Source: Candidatus Woesearchaeota archaeon (GTDB lineage: Archaea > Nanobdellota > Nanobdellia > Woesearchaeales > GW2011-AR9). From it: a stretch of DNA of 49,934 nt. Of this stretch, positions 8,586-49,916 are shown in pieces. How positions within the stretch are numbered: the stretch's first letter is position 1; every line of letters starts with the position of its first letter. The stretch covers positions 1 to 49,934 of the forward strand of contig JABHXC010000022.1 in the NCBI GenBank assembly GCA_018657475.1, in the 5' to 3' direction. The translations under genes were made by a program, and so were the position numbers. The notes beneath the pieces were generated by a model, which did not search any database, had not been told where the DNA came from, and saw only the letters and a list, made by a program, of their open reading frames with translations.

Positions 8586-8732
8586 CGGACCTGGGAGGAC
8601 TTTCAAAGATTCTCAGATTTATGAGCGGGAACGCAGTTGACCGCGAATCCCCCTACCAGATCTGGGAGATCTGTTTGAACCCCCGATCCCAACCTTAGGA
8701 GGGTTGTGCCCTATCCACTAGGCTACAGGTCC
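8586..8732 (-). tRNA. tRNA-Arg(CCU) with a 74-nt intron in the T-loop (59/60)
   Basis: Hand fold: GGACCTG TA GCCT AGTGGATA GGGC A CAACC CTCCTAA GGTTG GGATC GGGGG TTCAAA[intron]T CCTCC CAGGTCC G. The spliced product is a canonical 73-nt cloverleaf. Confidence 0.85.
8600..8673 (-). other. BHB intron of tRNA-Arg (position 59/60, 74 nt)
   Basis: Outer helix GGGGG/CCTCC, central 4-bp helix TTCA/TGAA, bulges AA|C and AG|T. Splicing restores the T-loop TTCAAAT. There is an internal hairpin CAGATCT-ccc-AGATCTG. Confidence 0.75.
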
Positions 8733-41876: not shown

Positions 41877-41897
41877 CACTGGTCAACTGGACAAGTG
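41877..41897 (+). promoter_or_regulatory. 21-nt motif CACTGGTCAACTGGACAAGTG upstream of LAGLIDADG gene 1
   Basis: 19 of 21 positions identical to 44618-44638. Both copies end exactly 38 nt before the start codon of a LAGLIDADG gene. The motif contains a tandem ACTGGNCA 8-mer. Confidence 0.55.
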
Positions 41898-41935: not shown

Positions 41936-42688
41936 ATGAAAGAATTAGAAGCAGAATTTCTTGGAAGATATTTTGGGGATGGTTGTTTAACTGTAAAAAA
42001 TAATAAAGCACAATTTTCTATAACTGGTGATTTAAAAGAAGAAAAAGAGTTTTACAAAAGAGTTGTTGTTCCAGAATTTAATGAATTGTTTAATCTTTCT
42101 TTAAAGTTAAGAGAGTATAAATCTAATGGTGTTTGTGGTTTATATTATTCAAGTAAAAATTTTGCAAGAGAATTACAAGAAACATATAATCTTAAACCTG
42201 GAAAGAAATTAAATGTTAATTTACCTCTTCTTAAGACTAAAAATGAAAAAATAGCTTTTTTAAGAGGAATTTTTGATACCGATGGTAGTATTTATTTTTG
42301 TAAAAGTTATTTTAAAACTAAAAAACCAACTTTTTGTAACTCATTTCATTATAAACCAAAGATAAAAATAGCTTTAATCTCTGAAAAAATAATCACTTTT
42401 ATTTATAACATATTCTTGGAACTTGATCTCTCTCCAAGGATGTATTCTCCAAGAAAGCAAAAAAAACAAGAAAACATAATTTATGCGTTGGTATTGGATA
42501 ACGATAAAGATGTTAAAAAATGGATCACAGAAATTGGTTTTAAAAATATTAAACATAAAACAAAAGTAAAAGTTTGGGAAAAATATGGTTTTTGTCCGCC
42601 AAAAACAACAATAAAAGATAGATATATGATTCTTCAAGGGGTTTTAGATCCACTAACATTTTATTCTTGGAAACAGAATGATTTATAA
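41936..42688 (+). CDS. free-standing double-motif LAGLIDADG endonuclease-like protein
   Basis: LGRYFGDGC and LRGIFDTDGSIYF. TTTATATT box at 41907-41914, 22 nt before the ATG. Confidence 0.8.
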   Translation: MKELEAEFLGRYFGDGCLTVKNNKAQFSITGDLKEEKEFYKRVVVPEFNELFNLSLKLREYKSNGVCGLYYSSKNFARELQETYNLKPGKKLNVNLPLLKTKNEKIAFLRGIFDTDGSIYFCKSYFKTKKPTFCNSFHYKPKIKIALISEKIITFIYNIFLELDLSPRMYSPRKQKKQENIIYALVLDNDKDVKKWITEIGFKNIKHKTKVKVWEKYGFCPPKTTIKDRYMILQGVLDPLTFYSWKQNDL

Positions 42689-42781
42689 ATAACTTCTAGG
42701 TTCAGATTATAAACTTACTATGCGAAGAGACACCTGTGATACAGACATGCGGGGGTAGCAAAGTCTGGTTAAATGCGCAGG

Positions 42782-42802
42782 AGGGCTTTAGTGCTCTGCG
42801 AA
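42782..42802 (+). other. BHB intron 1 of tRNA-Leu (30/31, 21 nt)
   Basis: Central helix CGCA/TGCG, bulges GG|A and AA|A, inner hairpin GGGC-TTTAGT-GCTC. Confidence 0.75.
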
Positions 42803-42809
42803 ACTTAAG

Positions 42810-42852
42810 ACCAGCTTGATAGATTCTCTATTGAGCTAAGATTGTGTAAGCA
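42810..42852 (+). other. intron 2 of tRNA-Leu (canonical 37/38, 43 nt)
   Basis: Anticodon-loop CTTA pairs with TAAG 2 nt before the 3' site. Bulges AG|A and CA|A, outer helix CAGGA/TCCTG. The inner part is an 11-bp hairpin AGCTTGATAGA/TCTATTGAGCT, so the form is relaxed (BHL-like). Confidence 0.65.
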
Positions 42853-42973
42853 ATCCTGTCTCTTAGTGGGTTCGAGGGTTCAAATCCCTTCCCCCGCACA
42901 TTTTCTTTTTATTTTCTTTAATTGCTATATTTGAAACCATAGTTTTATAAACTGACCATTCAATTTGATGATT

Positions 42974-43369
42974 ATGGCATTCAGAAGAGAAAGTTCAGAC
43001 AGATCAAGTGCAAGGGGATCAAGAACCTTTGCAGGTAGAGATACTAATAAACGAGGTTCTCATCGTTCTGAAAGAGGTAGTTCTGGTGGATACGGTAAAA
43101 GAAGTTCTAGAGATTTTGGTGGAAGAAATTCTGACAGAAGAGGTTCTGACAGAAGAGGATCAGATCGTCCAGAAATGACTAAAGTAACTTGTGATTCATG
43201 TGGGAAAAGATGTGAAGTACCATTCAAACCAACTTCTAACAAACCAATTTATTGCAGTGATTGTTTTAGAAAAGAATCTAGCCCAAGATCAAGCGGTTCT
43301 GGTAGTAAAGATTTAGCTGAAATTAACAAGAAGCTTGACAAAATAATGGATGCATTAGATATTAATTGA
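42974..43369 (+). CDS. CxxC-x17-CxxC zinc-ribbon protein with an Arg/Ser/Gly-rich N-terminus
   Basis: CDSCGKRCEVPFKPTSNKPIYCSDC. Start chosen at ATG 42974, exactly 22 nt after TTTATAAA (42944-42951). The ORF-track start is 42965. Confidence 0.7.
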   Translation: MAFRRESSDRSSARGSRTFAGRDTNKRGSHRSERGSSGGYGKRSSRDFGGRNSDRRGSDRRGSDRPEMTKVTCDSCGKRCEVPFKPTSNKPIYCSDCFRKESSPRSSGSGSKDLAEINKKLDKIMDALDIN

Positions 43370-43492
43370 TTATTAATTTTATTTTTATTGTTTATTCATT
43401 ATTATTTGTTTTTCATTAAGATTCTATTTTAATTTATTTTTATAAAAATAAAAAGAAGATATATAACAGATACTTCTTTTTTTAGATAATAA

Positions 43493-44605
43493 ATGGGAAA
43501 TTTCAATAAATTAGGTTTGAAAAAGGAAATTCTTGAAGTTTTGTCTAGATTGAAATTTACTAATACGCTTGAAGTGCAAGATCAAATTGTACCTTTAGTA
43601 ATGAAAAGAAAAAATGTTGTTTTCACATCAAGAACAGGTAGCGGGAAAACTCTTGCTTACCTTTTAGGTTATTTAGGAAAAATTAATAAAAAACGAAATG
43701 CTCAAATGATTGTTCTGGTACCCACAAGAGAACTTTGTATTCAAGTTGGTAAAGAGATTAAAACATTTTGTGACATTTTAGGAATTAATGTTGGAATGCT
43801 TTACGGTGGTAGAGAAATTAAAGGTGATTACAGAACTTTAAACAAAAAAAATCAAATTATTGTAGCAACTCCAGGAAGATTAATTTTACACGTTAATGAC
43901 AAAAAGATTAAAGTTGGTGAAGTGAAATATTTAGTTTATGATGAGTCTGACCAGATGTTTGATCACGGATTTTATGATGATTGTTTATATTTGAAAGAAA
44001 GAATTAGCAATGATGCACAAATTGTATTATCATCAGCAACCATAACTAAAAAAGTTGATAATTTTATTAAAGAAGAAATAGTTGATTATGAATTATTACA
44101 AATTGGAAGTTTGATTCCTGAAAATATCTTACAAGAAAAGTTGTATTGTGAAAAAATAGAAAAAAATGAAATATTGTTAAATTTATTCTCAAAAAGGAAA
44201 TTTAAACGGGCCATGGTATTTTGTAACACTAAACAAAAATCGTATAACATTGCTCAATTTTTTCAAAAAAATAAATTTAATGCAAAATCGTTAAGCGGTG
44301 ATCTTGAGCATAAAGAAAGGCAGAACCATCTTAATTTGTTTAAAGCAGGAAAAATTAAAATTTTAGTGGCAACAGATGTTGCTTCTCGTGGTCTTCACAT
44401 TGAAACAGTTGACATAATCATAAATTATGATGTACCTACAAAAGAAGAATTTTATGTACACCGGATTGGAAGAACTGGAAGAGTTGATAAAAAAGGGTAT
44501 TCTTTAACACTTGTTTGTCCAGAAGATGTAAAAAGATTATCTGATATTGAATTAAAGTATGATCTGATAATTGAGGAAATAAATAAAAAATCTGCTTCTA
44601 ATTAG
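43493..44605 (+). CDS. DEAD-box ATP-dependent RNA helicase (DESD variant)
   Basis: Q-motif region, TGSGKT, PTRELC, DESD, SAT, HRIGRTGR. Confidence 0.9.
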   Translation: MGNFNKLGLKKEILEVLSRLKFTNTLEVQDQIVPLVMKRKNVVFTSRTGSGKTLAYLLGYLGKINKKRNAQMIVLVPTRELCIQVGKEIKTFCDILGINVGMLYGGREIKGDYRTLNKKNQIIVATPGRLILHVNDKKIKVGEVKYLVYDESDQMFDHGFYDDCLYLKERISNDAQIVLSSATITKKVDNFIKEEIVDYELLQIGSLIPENILQEKLYCEKIEKNEILLNLFSKRKFKRAMVFCNTKQKSYNIAQFFQKNKFNAKSLSGDLEHKERQNHLNLFKAGKIKILVATDVASRGLHIETVDIIINYDVPTKEEFYVHRIGRTGRVDKKGYSLTLVCPEDVKRLSDIELKYDLIIEEINKKSASN

Positions 44606-44617
44606 GCTTTCATCATT

Positions 44618-44638
44618 CACTGGACAACTGGACAACTG
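44618..44638 (+). promoter_or_regulatory. 21-nt motif CACTGGACAACTGGACAACTG upstream of LAGLIDADG gene 2
   Basis: Second copy of the 41877-41897 motif, at the same 38-nt distance to the start codon (GTG 44677). Confidence 0.55.
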
Positions 44639-44676
44639 CAGGGAAAACATTTAAATTAATTCATCTTATTAAATTT

Positions 44677-45330
44677 GTGATAGAACTTAATGAAGAAATT
44701 TGTGAATTTATAGGGGCTTTAATTGGTGATGGTTATATTGGTAATTATGGTTCAAGAAAGCAGCAATATCTTATTGGGTTGGTTGGACACAATAAACTGG
44801 ACAAAAATTACTTTGTAGATTATCTTTATCCTTTAATTAAGAGAAATTTTAATTTTGTAAATCCACATATTTATTATAGATCTGATGAGAATACTATTCG
44901 CTTGGTTATTTATTCTAAGCGTTTGTTTATGTTTCTTACGTCTCTTGGAATGCCAATAGGCAAGAAGTCAAGAATCATTAAAATTCCTCAAAAGATTTTA
45001 GAAAAAGAAAGTCATATTTGTGCAACAATAAGAGGAATTTTTGATACAGATGGTTGTGTTTTTTTGGATCGTCGTTTGAAATATAAACAACCTTATCCTC
45101 GTTTGGTGCTTCAATCAGCAAGTATTCCATTGATTGAACAGCTAGAAAATTATCTTGGGAACTATTTTACGCTTTATGTGAAAAAAAATAATCGAGATGG
45201 TTATAGGAATAATTTAGAGATTTATGGCCATCAACAGCTAGAAAGCTTTTTAAAGCGAATAGGTCTTTCGAATCAAAGACACCTGTCTAGGTGCCCCCAT
45301 GGCCTAGCGGTAAGGTTTTCACCTCGCTAA
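44677..45330 (+). CDS. free-standing double-motif LAGLIDADG endonuclease-like protein
   Basis: IGALIGDGYIG and IRGIFDTDGCVFL. GTG start. The 3' end reads into tRNA-Thr exon 1 and intron 1. Confidence 0.75.
   Translation: MIELNEEICEFIGALIGDGYIGNYGSRKQQYLIGLVGHNKLDKNYFVDYLYPLIKRNFNFVNPHIYYRSDENTIRLVIYSKRLFMFLTSLGMPIGKKSRIIKIPQKILEKESHICATIRGIFDTDGCVFLDRRLKYKQPYPRLVLQSASIPLIEQLENYLGNYFTLYVKKNNRDGYRNNLEIYGHQQLESFLKRIGLSNQRHLSRCPHGLAVRFSPR
45312..45330 (+). other. BHB intron 1 of tRNA-Thr (D-loop, 20/21, 19 nt)
   Basis: AGCG GT|A AGGT-TTTC-ACCT CGCT AA|A: central helix AGCG/CGCT with two 3-nt bulges. Confidence 0.75.
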
Positions 45331-45338
45331 ATGGCGTT

Positions 45339-45357
45339 AGAACAATAGTTCCGCTAA
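45339..45357 (+). other. BHB intron 2 of tRNA-Thr (anticodon stem, 28/29, 19 nt)
   Basis: GGCG TT|A GAAC-AATA-GTTC CGCT AA|A: the same architecture as intron 1. Confidence 0.75.
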
Positions 45358-45413
45358 ACCTTGGTAAGGTAGAGATCCCGGGTTCAATTCCCGGTGGGGG
45401 CTCCATTTTTACT

Positions 45414-46238
45414 ATGGTAGAACTTCCTGAAAAGTTAAGAGATGAACTTAAAACGGTAATTGACATTATTCGGGAAGCCGGAGAAGTTTTACTTTCTTAT
45501 CAAGATACTAATAACGTGAAAAAGAAAGAAGATGGAACTTATGTTACAGAAGCTGATCATGCTGTATCTTCATTTATTCATAAAAACCTTGCATCAAGAT
45601 TTCCAGAATATGGTTATGTTGATGAAGAATTAACTCCATCTGAAGAAGAATTACAAAAAGAGTTTTGTTGGGTTATTGATCCATTAGATAGCACGCGAGA
45701 TTTTGTTGAAGGAAGGGACGGTTTTTCAATCATTATTGGTTTGTTACATAAAGGTAAACCAGTATTAGGAGTAGCTTATCAACCACAACAAGAAGTATTA
45801 TATTATGCTGTTAAAGGAGAAGGAGCTTATGTTGTAAGGTTTGGTAAAACATTAAAGTTACAAGTTTCACAAGATAAAACATTACGTTTAGTTATTACTC
45901 GTTCTAGAAAAGTAGCAGCAGAGACGACATGGTTAAGAGAAGTATTACATCCTGTATCTTTAGTAAGAAAAGGTGGTTCATTAAAAATTGTTGATGTAGC
46001 TACGGGAATGGCAACATTATTCTTAATTTTACCTGTTGGAGTGATGTCTGTATGGGATTTATGTGGGACAACAATCATTTTAGAAGAAGCCGGTGGTACT
46101 ATCACAGACTTTACTGGAGAATCATTAAATTTTTTAACTTTAAAACATACTAAAGGTATACTAGCATCAAACTCAATAGGGCATGAAATGTTAGTACAAA
46201 AATTACAAGATGCTGAAAGAAATCACAAAGAAAATTAA
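45414..46238 (+). CDS. inositol monophosphatase / CysQ-family phosphatase
   Basis: TEADHAV, WVIDPLDSTRDF, WDLCGTTIILEEAGG. Start set at ATG 45414 because the ORF-track start at 45291 lies inside the tRNA. Confidence 0.8.
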   Translation: MVELPEKLRDELKTVIDIIREAGEVLLSYQDTNNVKKKEDGTYVTEADHAVSSFIHKNLASRFPEYGYVDEELTPSEEELQKEFCWVIDPLDSTRDFVEGRDGFSIIIGLLHKGKPVLGVAYQPQQEVLYYAVKGEGAYVVRFGKTLKLQVSQDKTLRLVITRSRKVAAETTWLREVLHPVSLVRKGGSLKIVDVATGMATLFLILPVGVMSVWDLCGTTIILEEAGGTITDFTGESLNFLTLKHTKGILASNSIGHEMLVQKLQDAERNHKEN

Positions 46239-47154
46239 ACAAACAATTGATTCTTATTCAACTACTGATCAGCTTGTTTTTCAAAATCAAGTAATTCCTA
46301 TTCAACAAGGTTATTTTACTTCTTTAGTTGGTAATGGGGTTAAAAAGATTACTTTTATTGATGGTGGACAAGCAGAAATTTTGTCTGCAGCAAATTTTTG
46401 TTTAGGGTTTGTTAGGTTAGCTGCAGCGACATACCAAGGAATCACTTTAATTGATCAGAAAATCATAGAATTTTATGTTTTTGTAAAAGCAGTTTATCAC
46501 GCAAATGAGATTTATTATCAAAGTACATTATTTCCTGTAACTGGAAAATTATTATTTTCTGCAGAAGATTTGTTTATTTCTTCACATGATTCAACTATTA
46601 AAAATGGAACTGAACGAGCAGCTTTACAGAAAGTTGTTGGAATGGCAAGAAGGTTTGGTGAACTTACTTTAGCTGCTTCTTTTGATAATGAAATTGTTGT
46701 TTTAGATGGTACATTAGATGCTACTTATAAAAATGAAAATAAATTTTTATCTTTACTTTCTGAACAAGTTTCCGCTTTAGCAAAGTCATCTTCTTTGTTT
46801 ACTATCTCAGGTAATTCACCAATGATTTTTTTAAACAAAATAGGTCCTGAAAATGAATGTTGGAGTTATTTTGTTACTGGGAAAACTTATTTTGTTAAAT
46901 TACATCCAATAGCAAAACATATTTTTAGGTTTACTGGAAGGAAAGATGTATTATCGTCATTAGTAAAATTAAGTAGTGATGCAGTATTTTTAGGGTATCC
47001 TTACGGGTTAATTGTTGCAGATAAACTGGCTAGAGTAAGTAATGCTGAAAAAAGTTCATTACAAATGCAGTTTTTATTAAAAGAAGAGAACAAAGATATT
47101 GTTTCTTATTTAAGCACACAAAATGTTCATGATATATTGGATAGATTAGGGTAA
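46210..47154 (+). CDS. hypothetical protein, possibly a NurA-like nuclease
   Basis: ITFIDGGQAEIL and IVVLDGTLDATY resemble the DGS / DGSL acidic motifs of NurA. The resemblance is weak. Confidence 0.35.
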   Translation: MLKEITKKIKQTIDSYSTTDQLVFQNQVIPIQQGYFTSLVGNGVKKITFIDGGQAEILSAANFCLGFVRLAAATYQGITLIDQKIIEFYVFVKAVYHANEIYYQSTLFPVTGKLLFSAEDLFISSHDSTIKNGTERAALQKVVGMARRFGELTLAASFDNEIVVLDGTLDATYKNENKFLSLLSEQVSALAKSSSLFTISGNSPMIFLNKIGPENECWSYFVTGKTYFVKLHPIAKHIFRFTGRKDVLSSLVKLSSDAVFLGYPYGLIVADKLARVSNAEKSSLQMQFLLKEENKDIVSYLSTQNVHDILDRLG

Positions 47155-47186
47155 TTCTTTTAAAGTAGGTTTATTCTTAGAAATTT

Positions 47187-48413
47187 ATGGGGATTTTTGA
47201 TTTTTTAAAAAAGAAAAAAGTAGAATCTGAACAGTTAAAATTTAATGAAGTAGCTAGTTGGCTTGAAAAAGAGTTTAGTAAAGAAATGGAGATTTTTAAC
47301 CAAAACATTTCTTCATTAAAAGAAAAAATAATTGAAGAGAAAAATAAGACAGAACAACATTTGCAAAAACTTGCTGTAGAGGTGTTAAAAAATGAAAAGA
47401 TACCTGAACGTGCAAAGCAAATGATGGAAGGAAACAGAACTACATATTTACAAAAAGTAAGAGGGTTACTTTCTCAAATAAACCCTCCTGAAAATTATCC
47501 TGAATATGAACAGTTCTTTGTTACTATTGAGAAAGATTTTGATGATTTTGGTAAAGCAACATTAAGAAACTATCAGATTTTACGTGAATTTTTTAGTAAT
47601 GATATTTCTGCTATTGCACGGAATTTGAAAAAATTTAATGAATTACTAAAAGAAATGAAACAAATTGTTATTAAAACTAATATTAATGGAATTATCTTGT
47701 TACAAAATTCTGTTAGAGAATTAATTGTACAACGACAAAGGAAAGAAGAAAATAAAATTAAAGTATTAGAGCTTAAAGAAACAGTTAGTAAAAATGAAAT
47801 TGGTGTACAAAAGATTCAAAAAAAAATTGTTGGCTTAAAAAATGGTGAGATTTATTCTAAACATTTGAACTCTATTAAAGAAAAAGAAAAATTGGAATTA
47901 CAAAGAAGAAATCTTACTAATAGTGTTTTTCAATCATTTTCTGTAATCTCTGCTGGATTAAAAAAGTATGAACGAGTTACTTTAGATGGATCCGTAGTTA
48001 AAGCATATAACTCTAATCCTATATCTGCTCTTTTAGAAGATAAAGAATTGCAGATCATAACGGTTCTTGCGAAAATGAAGGGTGCTTTAAATAAGTTAGA
48101 CTTGAAAGAAAAGAAGCATGTTAAAGTTGAACAAGGGATTAATGTGTTCACTAAAGAGTATCTTCAAGATTTTCTTGTAAAATATGGGCGTTTTAGTAAT
48201 CAGTTAAATGAAGTTGAGAATGTGATTAATTCGGCTTCAATAGTTACAGAACTTGTTTCTTTAGAAGATGATTTGCGAAAAGAACAAATGATTTTACAAA
48301 ATATTCAAGAAAAAGTTTCATTATTAGAAGCAATTAAAGAAGATGATAGTATTGAAGAATTGTCTTCTAGGATTTCTAAACAGTTTGGGAAAGAAATTGT
48401 GATTGTAGTTTGA
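47187..48413 (+). CDS. long coiled-coil protein
   Basis: 408 aa, Lys/Glu-rich heptads throughout. The amphipathic N-terminus MGIFDFLKKKK is reminiscent of PspA/ESCRT-III N-termini. No P-loop. Confidence 0.5.
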   Translation: MGIFDFLKKKKVESEQLKFNEVASWLEKEFSKEMEIFNQNISSLKEKIIEEKNKTEQHLQKLAVEVLKNEKIPERAKQMMEGNRTTYLQKVRGLLSQINPPENYPEYEQFFVTIEKDFDDFGKATLRNYQILREFFSNDISAIARNLKKFNELLKEMKQIVIKTNINGIILLQNSVRELIVQRQRKEENKIKVLELKETVSKNEIGVQKIQKKIVGLKNGEIYSKHLNSIKEKEKLELQRRNLTNSVFQSFSVISAGLKKYERVTLDGSVVKAYNSNPISALLEDKELQIITVLAKMKGALNKLDLKEKKHVKVEQGINVFTKEYLQDFLVKYGRFSNQLNEVENVINSASIVTELVSLEDDLRKEQMILQNIQEKVSLLEAIKEDDSIEELSSRISKQFGKEIVIVV

Positions 48414-48420
48414 AGTGAAA

Positions 48421-49023
48421 TTATTTATTTTGGAGTAGGGATAAAACTTTTTCAAACTCTTCTGCTTGAATAATTGCATCTTCTAGGGCATTGTGTGGTA
48501 AGTCTTCTCCTCTAATTCCTAATTCAACAATATGTGATTGAACAGAACCAGTAACTCCTCGATACATAGAATTGATATCTTCTCCAGTGTGACCAAAAGG
48601 ATTATTTCCATCATAGAAATTATCAAAATACCATGAAGTAAACATTCCATCAAACTTAATTGGAGCTGCAGCTGCAACAGGTTTGAACCCTTCTGTTACT
48701 TTTCTTGTCCAGTCTGCGTATTCTTGCATTACTTTACTTGGTTCATCACCTTTCTCTTGAAGAACTTCTAACACTTTTTTAGCGTTAAATTTTTCACTTT
48801 CTGGATCAAATTCTGGATTATGTTTTAAATCATCTAAACATCTTAATCCTTTAGCACCTACCCTCATAGCAGAAACAATATGATTTTGATTAAGTGGTTT
48901 TATTTCTCTATAGAACTGTGTTGAAGTATCTCCGACAACACATGCGCCAAGGGATAACATTGAATATTTTCCTGGAGTTGGGCCTGAAGCTTCAATATCA
49001 AATGAAATATATTTTTTTTCCAT
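48421..49023 (-). CDS. DEDDh 3'-5' exonuclease (DnaQ/RNase T-like)
   Basis: Exo I FDIEASG, and Exo III HNALEDA near the C-terminus. Confidence 0.7.
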   Translation of the reverse strand: MEKKYISFDIEASGPTPGKYSMLSLGACVVGDTSTQFYREIKPLNQNHIVSAMRVGAKGLRCLDDLKHNPEFDPESEKFNAKKVLEVLQEKGDEPSKVMQEYADWTRKVTEGFKPVAAAAPIKFDGMFTSWYFDNFYDGNNPFGHTGEDINSMYRGVTGSVQSHIVELGIRGEDLPHNALEDAIIQAEEFEKVLSLLQNK

Positions 49024-49088
49024 ATTAATTAGGTATTTGATTTTATTTTAAAACTTATGATTTAATATTGAGTTATATGAATAAAGAG

Positions 49089-49207
49089 CGCCAGCGCCCG
49101 GATTTGAACCGGGATATCCCGAAGGAAACAGGAGTTCAGTCAATCTAGGTTCCAGTCTTACGCCTTCTAAAAGAAGTCTGCGCAGTACCAGATTGTGCCA
49201 CGCTGGC
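49089..49207 (-). tRNA. tRNA-Ser(GGA)-like class II tRNA with one BHB intron plus an unresolved 15-nt insertion
   Basis: GCCAGCG TG GCA CAATCTGGTAC TGC G CAG[20 nt]GA CTGGAAC[15 nt]TCCTG TTTCCTTCGGGATAT CCCGG TTCAAAT CCGGG CGCTGGC G. The discriminator G and the long variable arm fit Ser. Confidence 0.65.
49158..49177 (-). other. BHB intron 1 of tRNA-Ser (29/30, 20 nt)
   Basis: GCGC AG|A CTTCT-TTT-AGAAG GCGT AA|G: central helix GCGC/GCGT. Splicing joins CAG to GA, which completes the stem CAGGA/TCCTG. Confidence 0.7.
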
Positions 49208-49232: not shown

Positions 49233-49916
49233 TTATAAATTTAATGTTGCTTTAAGAGTTTCTGTCTTCTTCTTGTGATAAAAACCAATAATCTTGTAAT
49301 ATCTTTCTCTTGCACTTTTTTGATTAATGGAAATAATGTGAACTTTTGAATAGGTTTCTTGTTTGGGCTGATATTTATAGTTACAATGATTTATTTGAAA
49401 CTCAGAAAGAAGATTTGAAATATTTTTCATTCCATTTTCATTCACTGTTTGAACCCTAATTGTCTTTTTTCCAACATATGCTTCTGCTGAGAAAAATGCT
49501 CTCAGCCAATTTATTTTTGATTCTTGACAAGTAAGAATAGAGTTTGGGAGGTTCCAGTTATGAGTATCAAACTTTGCAAGTTTTAAAAGGTCAGTAACGA
49601 TTAATTTGGAAGTTTTTCTAACTGCAAAATAATTCTTTAATTTTTTTGTAGAGGGATTTTTTAAGTAAACTTTGTTTAATGCGTCAATATATACATCTTT
49701 CATTAACTCATCATCAGGAAAAAAATCTAATTGATAATGATTATAACTCTTTTCTCTTCTAACTTGCACACTTCCATCTCCAGCGAGAAAACCACATAAC
49801 ATTGCTTTTAAGATTCTTGTTTCTTCATTTTGTATCATTGCTGCTTTTTCTTTAGCAATTTTACTCTTCCAACGGGAATCAGCAATTTTCTTATTTCTTT
49901 TAGACAAATCTAACAT
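49233..49916 (-). CDS. free-standing double-motif LAGLIDADG endonuclease-like protein
   Basis: LCGFLAGDGSV and LRAFFSAEAYV. Its stop codon overlaps the TATA box (TTTATAAA 49232-49239) that sits 24 nt upstream of tRNA-Ser. Confidence 0.7.
   Translation of the reverse strand: MLDLSKRNKKIADSRWKSKIAKEKAAMIQNEETRILKAMLCGFLAGDGSVQVRREKSYNHYQLDFFPDDELMKDVYIDALNKVYLKNPSTKKLKNYFAVRKTSKLIVTDLLKLAKFDTHNWNLPNSILTCQESKINWLRAFFSAEAYVGKKTIRVQTVNENGMKNISNLLSEFQINHCNYKYQPKQETYSKVHIISINQKSARERYYKIIGFYHKKKTETLKATLNL

Follow-up and report, generated by a model that had tools for sequence, protein, structure and literature searches.

The window analysed here, a 49,934-nt stretch of contig JABHXC010000022.1, holds three tRNA genes, for Leu, Thr and Ser, that are interrupted by four mini-introns of 19-21 nt. 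Very probably these are ordinary archaeal bulge-helix-bulge (BHB) tRNA introns, with no sign of recent copying between tRNA genes; each is a local, near-minimal version of an intron that occupies the same position of the same tRNA gene in many related genomes. A sequence-only reading of the stretch had pointed out the four mini-introns, and had taken their common design as a product of intron transposition or duplication between tRNA genes. A sequence check and in-silico splicing bear out the existence, places and sequences of the four in the three tRNAs, while the proposed transposition finds no backing in the comparisons below. The window has a G+C content of 31% and carries archaeal genes for Spt5, FtsZ, a wyosine-synthesis radical-SAM enzyme, TrmB and endonuclease V; the host is a Woesearchaeota-like DPANN archaeon.

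ARAGORN called no tRNA gene in the unspliced window, and Rfam at its gathering score gave a single partial tRNA match (8662-8728) in the whole of it, adding in E-value mode a match of 39.1 bits at 42749-42898. Once the four mini-introns and two anticodon-loop introns had been taken out in silico, ARAGORN called intact tRNA-Leu(taa), tRNA-Thr(ggt) and tRNA-Ser(gga), and a separate cloverleaf solver (in a class II version for Ser) chose the same spliced solutions and intron positions. The tRNA-Leu(TAA) gene (42749-42898, + strand), seen by Rfam in E-value mode and by ARAGORN on the spliced sequence, has two introns: the mini-intron Leu-1 (AGGGCTTTAGTGCTCTGCGAA, 21 nt, 42782-42802, + strand) at position 30/31, and a canonical intron of 43 nt (42810-42852, + strand) at position 37/38, which must also be removed for the ARAGORN call and also fits the BHB motif, with a central helix CTTA/TAAG that was worked out by hand. 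The tRNA-Thr(GGT) gene (45293-45405, + strand), called by ARAGORN on the spliced sequence and the best solution of the cloverleaf solver, lacks a canonical intron and has two non-canonical ones, Thr-1 (AAGGTTTTCACCTCGCTAA, 19 nt, 45312-45330, + strand) at position 20/21 in the D loop and Thr-2 (AGAACAATAGTTCCGCTAA, 19 nt, 45339-45357, + strand) at position 28/29. The tRNA-Ser(GGA) gene (49089-49207, - strand), called by ARAGORN on the spliced sequence and by the class II solver, has the mini-intron Ser-1 (ACTTCTTTTAGAAGGCGTAA, 20 nt, 49158-49177, - strand) at position 29/30 and a 15-nt intron in the anticodon loop (49135-49149, - strand), whose boundary slides over five registers (33/34 to 37/38) and whose removal is again required for the ARAGORN call. 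This 15-nt intron is flanked by a near-repeat, GACTGGAAC / GACTGAAC. The four non-canonical positions agree between the cloverleaf parse and the sequence-only reading.

A scan of the four mini-introns for BHB motifs found in every one a central helix with all four pairs formed, two 3-nt bulges and a flanking helix on the intron side, h'. The pairing of an intron tetramer with an exon tetramer, as originally read from the sequence, is thus confirmed. Written as exon/intron, the central helix is CGCA/TGCG in Leu-1 (bulges GG|A on the 5' and AA|A on the 3' side, h' of 4 bp), AGCG/CGCT in Thr-1 (GT|A and AA|A, 4 bp), GGCG/CGCT in Thr-2 (TT|A and AA|A, 4 bp) and GCGC/GCGT in Ser-1 (AG|A and AA|G, 5 bp). 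None of the four has more than one contiguous pair (0-1) in the outer exon helix h, so that they take the relaxed HBh' form and not the strict hBHBh' form, with the qualification that the D stem of Thr-1 supplies three outer pairs beyond a T-T mismatch. Minimum-free-energy folds of the whole pre-tRNAs contain the BHBs of Leu-1, Thr-2 and Ser-1.

Each strand of the central helix of a BHB is followed on its 3' side by a bulge; canonically the exon strand is nt 32-35, and nt 36, 37 and the first intron base form the bulge after it. This placement implies that any BHB intron, at any site, consists of one bulge nucleotide, the h' hairpin, four nucleotides that pair with the exon and two further bulge nucleotides. 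The shortest possible intron of such a layout is 18 nt, and the mini-introns lie close to that minimum. In the pre-tRNA, four bases of the exon just upstream of the splice site would pair with the intron tetramer and so build the 4-bp central helix. The first bulge would consist of the last two bases of the 5' exon and the first intron base, the second of the last two intron bases and the next exon base, while the intron hairpin would serve as h'. From what is established for archaeal tRNA splicing, EndA would then cut within both bulges, two nucleotides into each, and an RtcB-type ligase would join the exons.

We compared the window with 172 loci (L001-L172, 1.2 Mb in total) from Woese-, Pace-, Nano-, Iain-, Aenigm- and Micrarchaeota assemblies, gathered via homologues of three LAGLIDADG proteins encoded beside the three tRNA genes. 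The census solver required a paired central helix and an h' of at least 2 bp, and allowed one free anticodon-loop intron; an earlier solver that used ARAGORN as judge had been dropped as too permissive, with many false isotypes. The Ser 29/30 intron was solved in 35 loci, as 27 distinct sequences of 19-46 nt, and tRNA-Ser(GGA) is intron-less in about 20 loci. The Thr 28/29 intron recurs in 16 other loci (19-31 nt, all ending in AA), and the Leu 30/31 intron in 12 other distinct loci (17-37 nt, with A, T or G as first base). The Thr 20/21 intron is found in L048, where the hairpin is nearly identical, and in L022. The versions in the window thus stand at the short end of each length range. The recurrence of these introns at the same sites across many genomes indicates that each mini-intron is long established and bound to one position within its own family of tRNA genes. 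Viral contigs, scanned twice for tRNA-Leu patterns, yielded no match.

The design that the sequence-only reading had emphasised (a starting A, a hairpin of 4-5 bp, a GC-rich tetramer and a closing AA) is indeed present in all four mini-introns. It does not set them apart as a family, being made up of BHB geometry and traits of the whole clade. Among 78 distinct BHB introns in about 170 of the related loci, which sit at the D-loop, 22/23, 28/29, 29/30, 30/31 and other sites of many tRNAs, the first base is A in 72%, the last two bases are AA in 53%, and the central helix has 67% G+C; the A start, the AA end and the G+C-rich tetramer are therefore clade-wide. The tetramer moreover follows the exon it pairs with. 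At Ser 29/30, the partner of exon GCGC is intron GCGT (18 distinct introns), and that of exon GCAC is GTGT or GTGC (9); the Leu intron of L170 has exon GGCA with intron TGCC, against CGCA/TGCG in the window, and at the Thr-1 site L048 and L022 have exon AGTG with intron CACT, against AGCG/CGCT in the window. These helix changes are compensatory. The part of each mini-intron that is free of such pairing, its hairpin (AGGTTTTCACCT, GAACAATAGTTC, GGGCTTTAGTGCTC and CTTCTTTTAGAAG), is no more alike among the four than are shuffled sequences, whether measured by the summed local alignment score (45, against a null of 39.2 +/- 4.1; p=0.10) or by the longest common substring (p=0.35). We attribute the likeness of the four to BHB geometry, to bulges rich in A and to the stability that a helix of 4 bp requires where the genome is AT-rich.

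These results bear directly on the proposal that the four mini-introns belong to a single family, passed from one tRNA gene to another by transposition or duplication, as suggested for Thermoproteales, which we now consider very unlikely. Its best material is the 6-mer CGCTAA, common to Thr-1 and Thr-2, along with the observation that three of the four introns pair with the same exon stretch (nt 23-28, containing GCG) at sites within 3 nt of each other, and that the exon sequences around the Leu and Ser sites are almost the same (TGCGCAGG|A against TGCGCAG|GA). Closely similar tRNA-Leu(TAA) genes, some of them near-identical, also differ in the presence or absence of the 30/31 intron, so gain or loss does happen. 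CGCTAA, however, is the only long word in common and falls in the part constrained by the BHB, where it pairs with exon AGCG or GGCG; the hairpins are shuffle-like, and the same design occurs throughout the clade at many sites, each mini-intron having orthologues at its own site in many genomes. The signature reported for Thermoproteales, very similar introns at different positions (as summarised in PMC4090602), is absent among the four mini-introns. The sequence-only reading had itself suggested a search for clustering beyond the minimal BHB and a same-site comparison of related genomes; as far as the present data go no such clustering appears, and the comparison has supplied the orthologues. 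That the introns are stable and position-specific across many genomes speaks against taking a common BHB layout for a sign of transposition.

Several points weigh against reading the mini-introns as ordinary BHB introns of old, separate standing. Helix h is missing in three of the four, so cleavage hinges on the specificity of EndA, and the BHB of Thr-1 is absent from the global minimum-free-energy fold of its pre-tRNA. The 15-nt Ser intron has no recognisable BHB: in none of the five registers that give the same product is there a 4-bp central helix, and the exon CTGG pairs with CTAG at the 5' end of the intron, leaving at least one splice of the set unexplained by the standard motif. Splicing of the mini-introns is itself predicted from the genes. 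The demands of the solver, and the counting of only those introns with an h' of at least 3 bp, bias the census towards good BHBs. Finally, an ancient transposition or a very old common origin may underlie the four, since hairpins evolve fast.

A quite different explanation, that the loci are decaying pseudogenes whose insertions are never removed, is scarcely credible to us. It would suit the failure of ARAGORN on all the genes and that of Rfam at its gathering score on Leu, Thr and Ser, with only a partial match to a tRNA-Arg gene (below), the 15-nt Ser intron that lacks a BHB, and the fragmentary tRNA remnants that lie beside related endonuclease genes. Yet the exons build perfect cloverleaves, their mature sequences are 79-94% identical across genomes, the same gene structure is found in dozens of genomes with compensatory changes in the helices, and TATA-like boxes precede the tRNA genes. 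The orthologues add that hairpin arms vary and still pair (for Leu-1, GGGC/GCTC, GAGC/GCTC, GACA/TGTC and GAGTT/AACTC), the mark of a selected RNA structure in functional genes, which speaks against pseudogenes.

Because three of the four motifs are relaxed HBh' forms, an EndA of broad specificity would be needed to process them; the sequence-only reading had named alpha2beta2 or epsilon2 as types that would account for the relaxed positions. No EndA gene was found in the window, either by Pfam on 39 open reading frames (ORFs) or by phmmer with the M. jannaschii EndA. The 1.2 Mb of related loci contain a single EndA, in the distant relative L026; it is one N+C unit of alpha type, 45% identical to the alpha4 EndA of M. 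jannaschii. Kaneta et al. 2018 describe several DPANN lineages with an alpha4 EndA carrying an L3 loop, count Pace- and Woesearchaeota among the genomes analysed, and link this enzyme to a marked rise in disrupted tRNA genes (PMC5829648); the same source has tRNA predictors leaving such tRNA sets incomplete.

The window holds a fourth disrupted tRNA gene, absent from the list of the sequence-only reading: tRNA-Arg(CCT) (8586-8732, - strand), with a 74-nt T-loop intron (8600-8673) at position 59/60. Its 3' exon came from a pattern search, and ARAGORN calls tRNA-Arg(cct) on the spliced sequence. The intron fits the BHB motif (central helix TTCA/TGAA, bulges AA|C and AG|T), has C as its first base and AG as its last two, and no LAGLIDADG gene lies beside this tRNA. 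The gene had for a time been taken as a 3'-truncated or split tRNA-Gly(TCC) at 8732, a reading rejected with the finding of the 3' exon 74 nt downstream and of the anticodon CCT. With this gene, every one of the window's four tRNA genes is disrupted, and their introns number seven in total; a failure of ARAGORN and of Rfam at its gathering score to see such genes matters for judging the completeness and the coding capacity of genomes of this kind.

Some smaller features of the tRNA genes may be recorded here. CCA is encoded after the discriminator base in tRNA-Thr (45403-45405, + strand), and is lacking in the other three tRNAs of the window. TATA-like boxes lie upstream of the tRNA genes, and the T loops of the window's own tRNAs are normal (TTCAAAT or TTCAATT). 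Position 55 of tRNA is almost universally U (pseudouridine). The tRNA-Thr genes of L002-L009, L014, L015, L027, L055, L062, L064 and L067 have the T loop TGCAAAT or TGCAACT, which puts a G at position 55.

Each of the three multi-intron tRNA genes for Leu, Thr and Ser adjoins a LAGLIDADG gene that lies directly 5' of it on the same strand, and this linkage, which is new, is kept across DPANN. The searchable literature yielded no published description of a linkage between LAGLIDADG and tRNA genes. HEG_Leu (41936-42688, + strand; Pfam PF14528, E=2.5e-6) ends 60 nt upstream of tRNA-Leu. HEG_Thr (44677-45330, + strand; E=1.8e-8) overlaps with its 3' end the first 38 nt of tRNA-Thr, its stop codon TAA being the last three bases of the Thr-1 intron. 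HEG_Ser (49233-49916, - strand; E=2.7e-11) ends 25 nt upstream of tRNA-Ser. All three score above the curated PF14528 cut-off and are the only LAGLIDADG ORFs of the window. Homologues, 35-72% identical, number 121 for HEG_Thr, 147 for HEG_Ser and 64 for HEG_Leu, and the HEG_Ser family is almost uniformly 226 aa long. The proteins have two LAGLIDADG motifs with invariant metal-binding acidic residues (GDG and DxDG in the Thr family, GDG and SAE in the Ser family), and profiles of the Thr and Ser families have their best PDB matches, all of them distant, in PI-PfuI (E=2.4e-12), I-DmoI (E ~1e-4) and I-Tsp061I.

For the Thr family, the solver placed a tRNA-Thr beside the homologue in at least 50 of 80 loci, and inspection by eye raised that number; the two genes share a strand in Woese-, Pace- and Nanoarchaeota and are on opposite strands in Iainarchaeota. 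Homologues of HEG_Ser are followed by tRNA-Ser at a distance of 0-65 nt in 62 of 80 loci, and most of the other loci are cut-off contigs. For the Leu family, tRNA-Leu(TAA) adjoins the homologue in all eight further loci, with the LAGLIDADG gene upstream, downstream or on the other strand. A role for these proteins as maturases or splicing cofactors was considered and judged unlikely, with homologues standing beside intron-less tRNAs and, in Iainarchaeota, on the opposite strand.

Some related loci have peculiar layouts. L161 (2100-3300) shows synteny with the window, except that its LAGLIDADG gene stands on the downstream side of tRNA-Leu, with the tRNA 3' end repeated after it (TCCCTTTCCCCACATTTTTTT); the tRNA-Leu of this locus has at least four introns. 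In L062, L064, L067 and L072 (e.g. L072 5479-6650), a tRNA 5' fragment of 15-20 nt (acceptor and D stem) is followed by a TATA box and a complete tRNA-Thr(CGT), then by a longer LAGLIDADG gene (~330 aa) and a tRNA 3' fragment (T arm and acceptor), and the acceptor halves of the two fragments pair fully or with 1-2 mismatches. This arrangement has the look of a cassette, made up of a tRNA and an endonuclease gene, that entered a tRNA-Thr gene close to the D loop. A repeat search for tRNA remnants around the window's own endonuclease genes found none. Both the variable placement and the tRNA fragments at the flanks are consistent with insertion of free-standing homing endonucleases next to the tRNA gene that they target.

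The tRNA-Leu(TAA) and tRNA-Thr(GGT) genes are themselves neighbours in many genomes (L001, L008, L010, L015, L069, L163 and L172), where a LAGLIDADG gene from one or the other family stands between them or to one side; in the window they are parted by genes for a zinc-ribbon protein and a DEAD-box helicase, and HEG_Leu and HEG_Thr both occur. In each of the three families, LAGLIDADG genes carry the motif CCACTGG(A/T)CA, at times doubled, 12-16 nt ahead of their TATA box; in the window it appears as CACTGGTCA (41877-41885, + strand) before HEG_Leu and as CACTGGACA (44618-44626, + strand) before HEG_Thr. Of its 42 matches in 1.2 Mb, 31 fall within 160 nt upstream of such a LAGLIDADG gene, and the motif may be a shared operator or the edge of a mobile cassette. 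The 10-mer AGACACCTGT occurs 11 nt upstream of tRNA-Leu (42729-42738, + strand) and 7 nt upstream of tRNA-Thr (45277-45286, + strand). The Thr copy codes for the conserved Arg-His-Leu at the C terminus of the LAGLIDADG protein; the Leu copy is non-coding (one frame reads RHL-stop) and is kept in L161, where no endonuclease gene lies upstream. Perhaps the copy at Leu is a fossil of the end of an earlier endonuclease gene.

The linkage brings up another possible account of the introns, collaborative homing, which is compatible with ordinary BHB introns at the RNA level. Here the neighbouring free-standing LAGLIDADG endonuclease would cut an intron-less tRNA allele at or near the insertion site, the intron would shield the genome that carries it, and repair of the break would bring the endonuclease gene and the intron jointly into new genomes. 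We regard this as unlikely overall, and the evidence differs among the tRNAs. Besides the position of all three LAGLIDADG ORFs of the window, the conservation of the linkage in all three families and the invariance of the acidic residues in both motifs, it gains from the variable placement of HEG_Leu and the duplicated tRNA 3' end of L161, which point to repeated insertion beside the same gene. All four mini-introns lie within the 5' half of the tRNA. For Leu, the 30/31 intron is present in all nine distinct loci that have HEG_Leu and in 4 of 11 that lack it (one-sided Fisher test, 0.004), in a small sample gathered via the endonuclease genes themselves and by a test that ignores phylogeny. 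A perfect split, all loci with the gene and 0/6 without it, had been given by the solver census, and was weakened to these figures when a solver-independent regular-expression search added four intron-bearing loci that lack the gene. The exon site CAAAYGCGCAGG|ACTTAAGATCCTGTC is identical in 18 of 20 loci, with L077 (intron-less) and L170 (intron-bearing) differing a few bases 5' of CAGG, and intron-bearing and intron-less tRNA-Leu genes interleave by sequence identity.

Collaborative homing predicts no endonuclease gene beside an intact target, and introns left behind after loss of the endonuclease gene, which is the pattern of the Leu loci. Many homologues of HEG_Thr and HEG_Ser adjoin an intron-less tRNA, as in L010, which has the exon sequence of the window. 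The 28/29 and 29/30 introns also occur where the matching endonuclease gene is lacking (L172; tRNA-Ser(TGA) of L015), and the strong conservation and uniform length of the proteins equally fit a domesticated host function. The Leu data lean towards collaborative homing, while the Thr and Ser data do not support the model as it stands. In its full form, with three endonuclease families each targeting one tRNA gene, and with HEG_Leu and the 30/31 intron spreading together as the intron interrupts the recognition site, the proposal is improbable; if true, it would supply a DNA-level mechanism for the gain of archaeal tRNA introns, which the literature calls unknown. Were these enzymes to cut intron-less tRNA genes, the long-open question of how such introns are gained would become directly testable. 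The endonuclease-tRNA linkage and the partial co-occurrence with the Leu intron are in this respect a more interesting outcome than the introns themselves.

Taken as ordinary BHB introns, the four mini-introns have close counterparts among the non-canonical introns of Archaea (Marck and Grosjean 2003; Sugahara et al. 2008; reviewed in PMC4090602), which have the same 4-bp helix, two 3-nt bulges and h' hairpin, and of which several may lie in one gene, likewise in the window. The known non-canonical sites listed in PMC4090602 are 20/21, 22/23, 25/26, 29/30, 30/31, 45/46, 53/54, 56/57 and 59/60; the window's sites 20/21, 29/30, 30/31 and 59/60 are on that list, and 28/29 is not. Those published introns have crenarchaeal hosts, whereas the window belongs to an AT-rich DPANN lineage, with three of the four mini-introns lacking helix h and all four near the minimum size. 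Thermoproteales resemble the window in having many non-canonical introns in different tRNAs of one genome (2010 work, as related in PMC4090602). There, very similar introns stand at different sites, and a gain at the DNA level was proposed from likeness over the full intron length, by a mechanism that the review calls unknown (PMC4090602, in its account of that work); in the window, by contrast, only the BHB-constrained bases agree. The survey of Kaneta et al. 2018 (PMC5829648) covers the same lineages and shares with the window multiple and non-canonical introns as well as incomplete predicted tRNA sets. In its portions relevant here it gives per-genome proportions, and does not treat the window's sites, their conservation or the neighbouring LAGLIDADG genes. 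Multi-intron tRNAs in these lineages have thus already been reported and the phenomenon is known in outline; to it the window adds documented near-minimal non-canonical BHB introns for a DPANN lineage.

For the LAGLIDADG genes, the nearest parallels are the free-standing endonucleases of phages (F-CphI at psbA; T4 mobE and I-TevIII, PMC2790892; T4 SegB in a cluster of tRNA genes, PMC13096335), which likewise have their own promoter and lie beside a conserved gene, and for which the model of collaborative homing has the intron interrupt the endonuclease target site. The phage systems involve group I introns, while in the window LAGLIDADG genes stand in a cellular archaeal chromosome beside BHB introns predicted to be spliced by proteins. 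The monomeric I-DmoI-type enzymes I-DmoI, I-Tsp061I and PI-PfuI, from archaeal rRNA BHB introns and inteins, have the same two motifs with conserved Asp/Asp or Asp/Glu. Genes of the I-DmoI type are carried inside the intron or intein, whereas the genes of the window lie outside, each family tied to one tRNA gene.

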